Origin: a virus
Lineage: Duplodnaviria; Heunggongvirae; Uroviricota; Caudoviricetes
Virus record (IMG/VR): IMGVR_UViG_2541047125_000010
Direction: 5' to 3' (one strand)
Length of the DNA stretch: 15,052 nt
Made by a program: the position numbers. The stretch's first letter is position 1; every line of letters begins with the position of its first letter. Below, one piece after another: positions 12,001-15,052 of this stretch.

Positions 12001-15000
12001 TCAGACCGGCAACGAGGCAGACCTTAATCCGAACATCGCTAACCGCAACAAAGGCGGGCGGCGCAAACCGAAAAAGAATTTTTTCAGCGACGAAGCCATC
12101 GAAAAGCTGGAGCAGATTTTCTTTGAGCAGTCTTTCGAATATCAGTTGCACTGGTATCGCGCAGGGCTTGAGCACCGCATCCGCGATATCCTGAAATCCC
12201 GCCAGATTGGCGCGACGTTTTATTTTTCCCGCGAGGCGCTGCTGCGCGCCCTGAAAACCGGTCATAACCAGATTTTTCTGTCGGCCAGTAAAACGCAGGC
12301 GTATGTGTTCCGCGAATACATCATCGCCTTTGCCCGGCTGGTTGACGTTGACCTGACCGGTGACCCAATTGTCCTGGGCAATAACGGCGCAAAACTGATT
12401 TTTCTCGGCACCAACTCCAACACCGCGCAGAGCCATAACGGCGACCTGTACGTCGACGAGATTTTCTGGATCCCGAATTTTCAGGTACTGCGTAAGGTGG
12501 CATCAGGTATGGCCTCACAGAGTCACCTGCGCTCGACCTATTTCTCCACCCCGTCCACACTGGCGCACGACGCCTACCCGTTCTGGTCGGGTGAACTGTT
12601 TAACCGGGGACGCGCCAGCGCCGCCGAACGCGTGGAAATCGACGTCAGTCATAACGCCCTTGCCGGTGGGCTTCTCTGTGCGGACGGCCAGTGGCGGCAG
12701 ATTGTCACCATTGAGGACGCCCTGAAAGGCGGCTGCACGCTGTTCGACATTGAGCAGCTCAAACGTGAAAACAGCGCCGACGATTTTAAAAACCTGTTCA
12801 TGTGTGAATTTGTTGACGACAAGGCGTCGGTGTTCCCGTTCGAGGAGCTGCAACGCTGCATGGTCGACACGCTGGAAGAATGGGAAGACTATGCTCCGTT
12901 TGCCGCCAATCCGTTCGGCTCACGTCCGGTATGGATTGGTTACGACCCGTCACACCGTGGCGACAGCGCCGGATGCGTGGTGCTGGCACCGCCGGTGGTG
13001 GCCGGTGGCAAATTCAGAATACTTGAGCGTCACCAGTGGAAAGGCATGGACTTTGCCACTCAGGCTGAATCCATCCGCAAACTCACCGAGAAATACAACG
13101 TCGAATACATCGGTATTGATGCCACCGGCCTCGGTGTCGGCGTGTTCCAGCTCGTGCGCTCGTTCTATCCCGCCGCGCGCGATATCCGCTACACGCCGGA
13201 AATGAAAACTGCAATGGTGCTCAAGGCAAAAGACGTTATCCGCCGTGGCTGTCTGGAATATGACGTCAGCGCCACCGACATCACCAGCTCGTTCATGGCT
13301 ATCCGCAAGACCATGACCAGCAGCGGACGCAGCGCCACCTATGAGGCCAGCCGCAGCGAGGAAGCCAGCCACGCCGACCTCGCCTGGGCGACCATGCACG
13401 CCCTGTTAAATGAGCCACTCACCGCCGGTATCAGCACTCCGCTGACATCCACCATTCTGGAGTTTTACTGATGAGTAAGAAAAAAGGGAAAACACCGCAG
13501 CCAGCGGTGAAAACAATGACTGCCAGCGCCCCGAAAATGGAGGCATTCACCTTTGGTGAGCCGGTGCCGGTACTCGACCGCCGTGATATTCTGGATTACG
13601 TCGAGTGCATCAGTAACGGCAGATGGTATGAGCCACCGGTCAGCTTTACCGGTCTGGCAAAAAGCCTGCGTGCTGCCGTGCATCACAGCTCACCGATTTA
13701 CGTCAAACGTAATATTCTGGCCTCAACGTTTATCCCGCACCCGTGGCTTTCCCAGCAGGATTTCAGCCGCTTTGTGCTGGATTTTCTGGTGTTCGGTAAT
13801 GCGTTTCTGGAAAAGCGCTACAGCACTACCGGTAAGGTCATCAGACTGGAAACCTCACCGGCAAAATATACCCGCCGTGGCGTGGAGGAGGATGTTTACT
13901 GGTGGGTGCCATCCTTCAACGAGCCGACACCTTTCGCGCCCGGCTCCGTGTTTCACCTGCTGGAGCCGGATATCAATCAGGAGCTGTACGGCCTGCCGGA
14001 ATATCTCAGCGCCCTTAACTCTGCCTGGCTGAATGAGTCGGCCACGCTGTTCCGCCGCAAGTATTACGAAAACGGCGCACATGCCGGATACATCATGTAC
14101 GTCACCGATGCCGTGCAGGATCGCAACGATATCGAAATGCTTCGCGAAAACATGGTGAAGTCGAAAGGCCGCAACAACTTTAAAAACCTGTTTCTCTACG
14201 CCCCACAGGGAAAAGCCGACGGTATTAAAATTATCCCGCTCAGTGAAGTGGCAACGAAGGACGATTTTTTTAATATCAAAAAAGCCAGCGCCGCAGACCT
14301 GCTGGACGCGCACCGCATCCCTTTTCAGTTGATGGGCGGCAAGCCGGAGAACGTCGGGTCGCTGGGTGATATTGAGAAAGTGGCAAAGGTCTTTGTCCGC
14401 AATGAGCTTATCCCGTTACAGGACAGGATCCGCGAGATAAACGGCTGGCTCGGTCAGGAGGTCATCCGCTTTAAAAACTACTCACTGGACACTGACAACG
14501 GCTGAACATCGCCGCCTGCGGGCGGCTTTTTTACACCCCGTCATCACGCCCTCACACGCTCACCACCGCACAAAACAGCCCGCAGACACACCAACGCCCC
14601 GGCTAACAATCTAAACGCCATCACGACGCGCTCAGACGCTGAAAAAATAAAATCAGCACCACCGCCAGCGCGCAGTGCTTTCCCCGCCTCGCCCGCCCGC
14701 TTCACGGGGCGGTTTTAATGCAGGTGCATGGACACTCCAAGAGCACGCCAGCACTGACGATAACTGACAATAAAAGCAACTTTTGACACATGCAAATTCA
14801 TGCCATCAGACACTCACAACAAAAAACAGCGATTGATATAGTTATGAATTTACAAATGATGAGCTACAGGTCAATTGTTAGTTCTTATTTATGTGATCTT
14901 GATGGTTTTTTGTTAATAATGTTATTGTGATCGTATAGGTTGTGTGTTACTGGTCTAATTTTCTATCGCTGTTTTTTGTTGTGAGTGTCTGATGGCATGA

Positions 15001-15052
15001 ATTTGCATGTGTCAAAAGTTGCTTTTATTGTCAGTTATCGTCAGTGCTGGCG

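Follow-up and report, generated by a model that had tools for sequence, protein, structure and literature searches.

The joined cos site of a P2-like Escherichia coli prophage and a probable fold-back artefact at the edge of its cos-proximal variable slot

What lies to the right of cos in a P2-like genome that has been joined at its cohesive ends? The question is raised by IMG/VR record IMGVR_UViG_2541047125_000010, a stretch of 15,052 nucleotides (nt) of Caudoviricetes DNA (hereafter, the window), which carries the cohesive-end sequence of phage P2 less than 400 nt from its right-hand end, at the place where P2-like phages hold exchangeable cargo. In these phages the cos-proximal hotspot between gpA and gpQ has been found in 1,650 arrangements among 18,150 occurrences (Rousset et al. 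2022, PMC9122126). We compared the window with 5,426 complete E. coli genomes and 50,697 phage records. Its first 14,833 nt were 100.0% identical, with zero differences, to positions 2775444–2790276 of E. coli strain 10671 (NZ_CP018250.1), which comes from cattle faeces in the UK, and 99.9% identical over the same 14,833 nt to O157:H7 strain MB41-1. The copy in 10671 is a chromosomal P2-like prophage in which ogr adjoins yegQ and int adjoins yegR, and 2,988 of the 3,015 places matching the cos region in the complete E. coli genomes are likewise chromosomal. The window runs as the reverse complement of the standard P2 map. We consider it highly probable that it represents the late-gene half of a P2-like (Peduovirus) E. 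coli prophage, leading from the tail-fibre region to the portal gene Q, through a joined cos and into the cos-proximal variable slot, and that it ends in an artefactual fold-back. Beyond position 14833, reference positions are given below in window numbering and are referred to as the true frame.

The cos site and its conserved flanks

The 19-nt P2 cohesive-end sequence, GGCGAGGCGGGGAAAGCAC, is present in a single copy at 14675–14693 on the minus strand and matches at 19 of 19 bases, where none would be expected by chance. It is identical to both cosL and cosR of P2, whose record (NC_001895) holds the 19-mer at each of its two ends. In 200 dinucleotide-preserving shuffles the 19-mer was never recovered, even when 3 mismatches were allowed. 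The surroundings are those of a P2-type cos. Immediately to the left stands the portal gene Q (13471–14505, plus strand; 344 amino acids), the last gene before cos, followed by a rho-independent terminator detected by a terminator scan at 14511–14532 on the plus strand (GCCGCC-TGCG-GGCGGC, then TTTTTT). This terminator is the equivalent of P2 tQ, which is annotated at 160–181 directly after Q (187–1221, beside cosL) in the P2 record. After the terminator come 169 nt with 95% identity to the P2 left end, and to the right of cos the P2 right end is matched at 29 of 29 nt, up to 14722. When the two ends of P2 were joined and compared with the window, identity was 95% from 14300 through cos to 14722 (approximately 420 nt), and homology ended there. 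Linear virion-derived records (S164, MET_P1_103_31, P2 and fiAA91-ss) stop exactly at the 19-mer, at window position 14693. A chance 19-mer that marks no cos site is ruled out by the shuffles, by the approximately 420 nt resembling the joined P2 ends and by the linear records that end at this point.

Because the 19-mer has phage DNA on both sides, the genome is joined at cos, as in an integrated or circular P2-like phage, and its source must be an integrated, circular or concatemeric genome as opposed to a linear virion. The first-pass annotation of the window had claimed as much, from an intact 19-mer flanked by phage DNA, and the P2-like flanks on the left and right bear it out. That cos is joined is thus directly visible in the window. 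During P2 packaging, terminase makes one nick in each strand of cos, with a 19-nt stagger that leaves 5' cohesive ends. The terminase proteins M and P, both encoded in the window, would be expected to cut at the window cos in the same way, and a joined cos is the state reached after cohesive ends anneal and are ligated, hence the state of every integrated prophage. Among the joined forms, we infer a prophage instead of a circular or concatemeric molecule because of the identity to chromosomal prophages, the window itself containing neither an attachment (att) site nor host DNA.

To the right of cos, the stretch 14694–14733 is the last DNA common to all P2-like phages on that side, as judged by comparison with P2, phage 186 and 10 prophages identified through the exact same 344-amino-acid portal protein or through DNA similarity. 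This flank, CGCCCGCTTCAYGGGGCGGTTTTAATGCAGNTGCA, includes a quasi-palindrome, ATGCAGGTGCAT. Approximately 29 to 40 nt of it are kept together with the 19-mer in the 10 prophages, which carry different cargo; conservation, with substitutions, reaches approximately 14723–14735, and divergence is complete thereafter. The corresponding flank of phage 186 is recognisably related. The same boundary is seen in the wider genome set: a query starting at cos is matched over no more than its first 48 to 63 nt in approximately 2,100 of the 5,426 complete E. coli genomes, which share just cos and some 30 to 45 nt beyond it. Abutting the 19-mer, a hairpin with a 6-bp G+C stem followed by TTTT (14693–14716) is kept in P2, in 186 and in all prophages compared. 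It may be a terminator that shields the cargo slot from read-through of the Q operon, or part of the terminase recognition region. Substitutions occur in this hairpin between phages.

GC content is 55% in the backbone, 42% at 14734–14833 and 28% in the next 131 nt. This fall, together with the end of homology, places the end of the conserved cos region near 14733, so that the variable slot begins inside the window. The DNA to the right of cos had been assigned to the right end of the P2 map, and this assignment holds, since conservation ends 29 to 40 nt past the 19-mer at the variable gpQ–gpA slot (PMC9122126). The window had also been said to end at the start of the variable right end; the slot is indeed reached, but it starts within the window, with the GC drop after approximately 14734. 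By comparison with relatives, the gpQ–gpA hotspot, with its exchangeable AT-rich cassettes, begins right of the conserved flank. Its first 100 nt (14734–14833, plus strand), which stand in the true orientation and are 100% identical to 10671, are of the type specific to P2-like prophages with a type V cytolethal distending toxin (cdt-V) and differ from the corresponding DNA of P2, of the O157:H7 strain F6321 prophage and of others. The right end of phage fiAA91-ss is approximately 98% identical to the window stretch that reaches 14833, 53 nt from its annotated cosR. The visible right end had been described as non-coding, and we found the same: a scan for open reading frames (ORFs) returned none of note in 14520–15052 and none of at least 60 amino acids beginning after the Q stop codon, and the identical complete genome has no gene annotated in that post-Q region.

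The fold-back at the end of the window

Forward identity to the 10671 reference stops at 14833. From 14829 to the last base, 15052, the window is instead the exact reverse complement of true frame 14746–14969, so that its last 219 bases (14834–15052) are the reverse complement of reference positions 14746–14964. The forward and the reverse-complement identities overlap at 14829–14833 in a 5-nt microhomology, GCGAT, which is the fold-back junction. The outcome is a 91-nt inverted repeat, 88 nt of it perfect, in which 14746–14833 pairs with 14965–15052 across 131 nt. These 131 nt (14834–14964, minus strand) are AT-rich intergenic DNA from upstream of cdtA with a GC content of 28%; they match the 10671 reference exactly as its reverse complement and match fiAA91-ss at 33329–33465, on the strand opposite to that expected. 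The second arm (14965–15052, minus strand) is complementary at 88 of 88 positions, a perfect duplicate of 14746–14833 that extends to the final window base without adding new sequence. The right end had been taken to be visible over some 360 bp; what is actually present is 271 unique nt, 140 in true orientation and 131 only in inverted form, and the final 88 nt are duplicate.

At the level of the bases, the true sequence reads CAGCGAT, then AGAAAATTAGACC, and 131 nt later TATATCA, then ATCGCGTTTTGCACTC, and runs on to cdtA. The window instead reads CAGCGAT, then TGATATAGTT, and afterwards runs backwards. The fold-back junction is thus AACAGCGAT followed by TGATATAGTT, as opposed to the true junction of AACAGCGAT followed by AGAAAATTAGACC (also CAGCGAT followed by AGAAAATTAG). 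The GCGAT motif belongs to an imperfect inverted repeat, AAAACAGCGAT and ATCGCGTTTT, which flanks the 131-nt segment in the true sequence and matches at 10 of 11 positions.

We searched for this arrangement elsewhere. The second arm is absent from the complete 10671 genome and from fiAA91-ss, and each of the 47 genomes containing any part of the 224-nt true stretch has it once only. No complete E. coli genome (0 of 5,426) and no phage record (0 of 50,697) spans the junction, the best coverage being 61%. A 34-mer across the junction gave 0 matches in IMG/VR, in the GTDB species genomes and in the JGI metagenomes, and long NCBI chromosomes encoding the exact same portal protein do not contain the fold-back. 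A shorter probe, the 20-mer AAACAGCGATTGATATAGTT, had 19 matches, in which identity to the window extended at most 2 nt further and none of which was accompanied by the cos 19-mer; we regard these as coincidence. In 14 of the 19 contigs the 20-mer has a 50-nt context that is the same or nearly the same; in the other 5 the context is looser or unrelated. All 13 of its GTDB matches are in Bacteroidota (Chryseobacterium, Flavobacterium, Pedobacter and others), the remaining 6 being metagenome contigs, and the shared context presumably represents a gene or RNA segment conserved in Bacteroidota and unrelated to the window.

Given that the junction was found in none of the complete E. coli genomes, phage records or contig collections, we read the window tail as an artefact and not as phage biology. 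Its likeliest form is a chimeric fold-back at the end of a contig, produced during library preparation or within the assembly graph. Inverted chimeras arise by strand displacement or template switching at short microhomologies, and de Bruijn assemblies can contain hairpin-like contig ends. The window shares with such chimeras the inverted rejoining, the skipped piece of 131 nt, the 5-nt microhomology, the position at the end of a sequence and an arm length compatible with k-1. After CAGCGAT (14833) the sequence departs from the true path, resumes on the other strand 131 nt downstream, at the complementary ATCGC, and runs backwards from there to the window end, which is the signature of a template switch or a chimeric fold-back captured at a contig end. 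If the contig stops where the window does, the 88-nt arm would correspond to k-1 for a de Bruijn k of 89. We also tried the k = 89 logic at the left end of the window, at the tail-fibre inversion site, where it does not fit, the branch being at approximately position 50 and not at 89.

Several points weigh against the reading of the window as part of a prophage of this type that ends in an artefact. The status of 15052 as a contig end is assumed, and the palindrome could far exceed 88 nt if the contig continues. Sequence by itself cannot separate a fold-back formed in vivo from a library or assembly chimera. An assembler would normally follow the well-covered true path in preference to a rare chimeric edge, so there is some scope for a real rearrangement or a real sub-population. 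The window is without an att site or host DNA, and the cargo of the source phage is outside it, its cdt-V identity being predicted from 271 nt of linked sequence.

The alternative that survives best is that the fold-back is real, namely that a template switch at the quasi-palindrome formed by AAAACAGCGAT and ATCGCGTTTT took place in the source strain, in a sub-population or in a replication intermediate, and gave an inverted duplication of the prophage end next to cos that replaced or displaced the cargo. The junction falls at an inverted microhomology present in the true sequence (5 nt exact, 10 of 11 imperfect), template switching at quasi-palindromes in vivo uses such microhomology, P2 replicates as a rolling circle with much single-stranded DNA, and the assembler took the fold-back path instead of the true path. 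However, the arrangement is unseen in the complete E. coli genomes, in the phage records and in the three contig collections; outside the tail, the window does not differ at a single position from a genome arranged normally; in E. coli, SbcCD makes long inverted repeats unstable when only a short spacer separates them; and the fold-back occupies the extreme end of the window, as assembly chimeras tend to do. We therefore judge a real rearrangement in the source strain to be improbable, and slightly more improbable still that the tail is an in vivo snap-back or inverted duplication produced by template switching just inside the hotspot. If true, a real fold-back would be a hint that template switches are among the routes by which hotspot cassettes are lost, inverted or exchanged.

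We give very little credence to the possibility that the 131-nt segment upstream of cdtA is an invertible switch captured in its flipped state. The segment is inverted relative to all references, it is flanked by a short imperfect inverted repeat, and an invertase gene is present in the same prophage. After a simple inversion, however, the segment would be followed by the downstream DNA, ATCGCGTTTTGCACTCACGG; because the window has the 88-nt exact reverse-complement arm in that place, simple inversion of the segment is excluded. The flipped orientation occurs in 0 genomes or phage records, and the flanking repeat is exact over only 5 nt, unlike the 27-nt crossover sites of the tail-fibre segment.

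Hardly worth entertaining is a hairpin telomere of the N15 type, the covalently closed end of a linear plasmid-prophage: such telomeres do appear in assemblies as palindromic contig ends, but they are palindromic through the apex, where the window has a non-palindromic loop of 131 nt, and this is a P2-like phage with int and its attachment beside yegR in the identical genome, a protelomerase gene being annotated in none of the relatives.

A fold-back of chimeric origin also changes where the cargo is to be sought. It had been expected beyond 15052; as the tail folds back, continuation of the contig would give the same DNA backwards or nothing. Two other scans touch the artificial tail. A promoter scan gave 3 weak sigma-70-like sites against 1.0 expected, 2 of which touch the artificial junction or the loop, and they were left uninterpreted. 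Two Rfam hits in 14300–15052, both to microRNA precursors, scored 35.9 against a gathering threshold of 211 and 20.4 against one of 58; they are caused by the hairpin and were rejected.

Cargo between cos and gene A

The gpQ/cos side of the slot is in the window, and in the 100%-identical genome of 10671 gpA follows 2.8 kb after cos. Between the two, 10671 carries cdtA, cdtB and cdtC of type V. The same three type V genes occupy the slot of phage fiAA91-ss (KF322032), and cdtA, cdtB and cdtC are found in that of L012 (GCA_900449115.1), with the Pfam assignments CDtoxinA, Exo_endo_phos and CDtoxinA. P2 has old and tin at this place and 186 has tum and orf97. The first-pass annotation had proposed to compare the extended sequence with these two phages; the slot of the identical genome holds cargo and not only conserved right-end genes, and the 19-mer beside it is no chance match, so that neither of the findings named there as refuting the proposal applies. 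The prophage of O157:H7 strain F6321, a 97% relative, carries an AAA ATPase and an ABC-three-component system, and other genomes with an identical portal protein carry GmrSD, SIR2_2, a reverse transcriptase with an AAA ATPase, DUF4238, an AAA_15/21 pair or unannotated genes. Cargo thus varies among near-identical phages and homology breaks sharply at 14723–14735, beside cos, as in a hotspot. At least 7 cassettes, cdtABC among them, lie behind exactly the same 344-amino-acid portal protein, approximately 330 to 800 nt downstream of the portal gene. At the level of these sequence comparisons, the diversity of cassettes behind one portal protein shows a slot turnover that appears fast relative to the backbone.

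To which of these types the source phage belongs can be predicted from the DNA next to cos. The 224 nt of true sequence that follow 14745 were found at an identity of at least 98.7% in 22 complete genomes, single-copy in each, and in 22 of the 22 cdtABC-V is contiguous with the 224 nt at an identity of at least 99.5%. The visible right-end DNA is identical to that of the 10671, MB41-1 and recorded O157:H7 493/89 prophages. Our best prediction is that the source phage carries the cdtABC type V toxin in its slot and not a defence cassette. The relatives had been said often to carry anti-phage defence genes as cargo. Defence cassettes do occur in some of them, but the cargo linked to the phage type of the window is the cdt-V toxin, in all 22 genomes. 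Approximately 2% of the hotspot arrangements carry a cytolethal distending toxin, so that defence cargo is no strict requirement of the hotspot (PMC9122126).

Set beside the P2 cos and hotspot, the window has the same 19-mer, the same place after Q and tQ, a left flank of 95% identity, a right flank identical at 29 of 29 nt and a loss of homology at the position of old and tin; it differs in that the DNA past the flank is the AT-rich region upstream of a cdt-V cassette and not old and tin, and in that the gpA side is outside the window. With the Cdt-V P2-like phages and prophages (fiAA91-ss, 10671, MB41-1 and 493/89) it shares the right-end DNA, at the distance from cosR seen in fiAA91-ss, whereas theirs continues into cdtA-cdtB-cdtC and then gene A and the window turns back after 14833.

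The sequence from true frame 14868 onward is also shared upstream of plasmid-borne cdt-III, at 86% to 95% identity. Within it, true frame 14868–14966 (approximately 14834–14930 of the window as the reverse complement) is 86% to 87% identical when aligned alone and 95% together with the operon, in approximately 10 large cdt-III plasmids. Judged from this shared sequence, a cdt cassette mobile between P2-like phages and plasmids has its left boundary at true frame 14868.

Neighbouring genes and significance

The order of the genes Q, P, O, N, M, L and so on was taken from the window ORFs and from the RefSeq annotation of the identical NZ_CP018250.1 prophage. Q is 100% identical at the DNA level to the portal gene of that genome, and Pfam PF04860 is recorded for a protein identical to its product. 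The terminase gene P lies at approximately 11699–13471 on the plus strand, and O, N, M, L, X, Y, K, the lysis genes, R, S, V, W, J, I, H and G, identified in the same manner from ORFs and annotation transfer, are on the minus strand. At the other end of the window, a 27-nt imperfect inverted repeat (23–49 and 1925–1951; 81% complementary, with the common inner half TTGGTTTGGGAGAAG) bounds a 1.9-kb tail-fibre segment, 23–1951, in which alternative fibre C-termini and assembly genes stand on opposite strands, 40–408 and 420–872 on the plus strand versus 844–1446 and 1446–2765 on the minus strand. The window starts 22 nt outside the left crossover site, and in NZ_CP018250.1 a gene for a recombinase family protein (10818–11411 in the compared stretch) begins 34 nt outside the left end of the window. 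From its layout, the tail-fibre segment looks like a host-range inversion switch of the Gin/Cin type.

The joined cos and the variable slot adjacent to it are known P2 biology, the hotspot having been published (PMC9122126) and carriage of cdt-V already described in fiAA91-ss. The new point is that the window turns back instead of continuing into the cargo. Its last 219 bases are unfit for annotation as a phage right end, and a fold-back of this kind can mislead scans for inverted repeats, hairpin RNAs and cargo, as the spurious microRNA-precursor hits illustrate. For the bacterium itself, the source strain very probably carries the Cdt-V genotoxin on a prophage, which is relevant to the typing of Shiga-toxin-group and O157-type E. 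coli.

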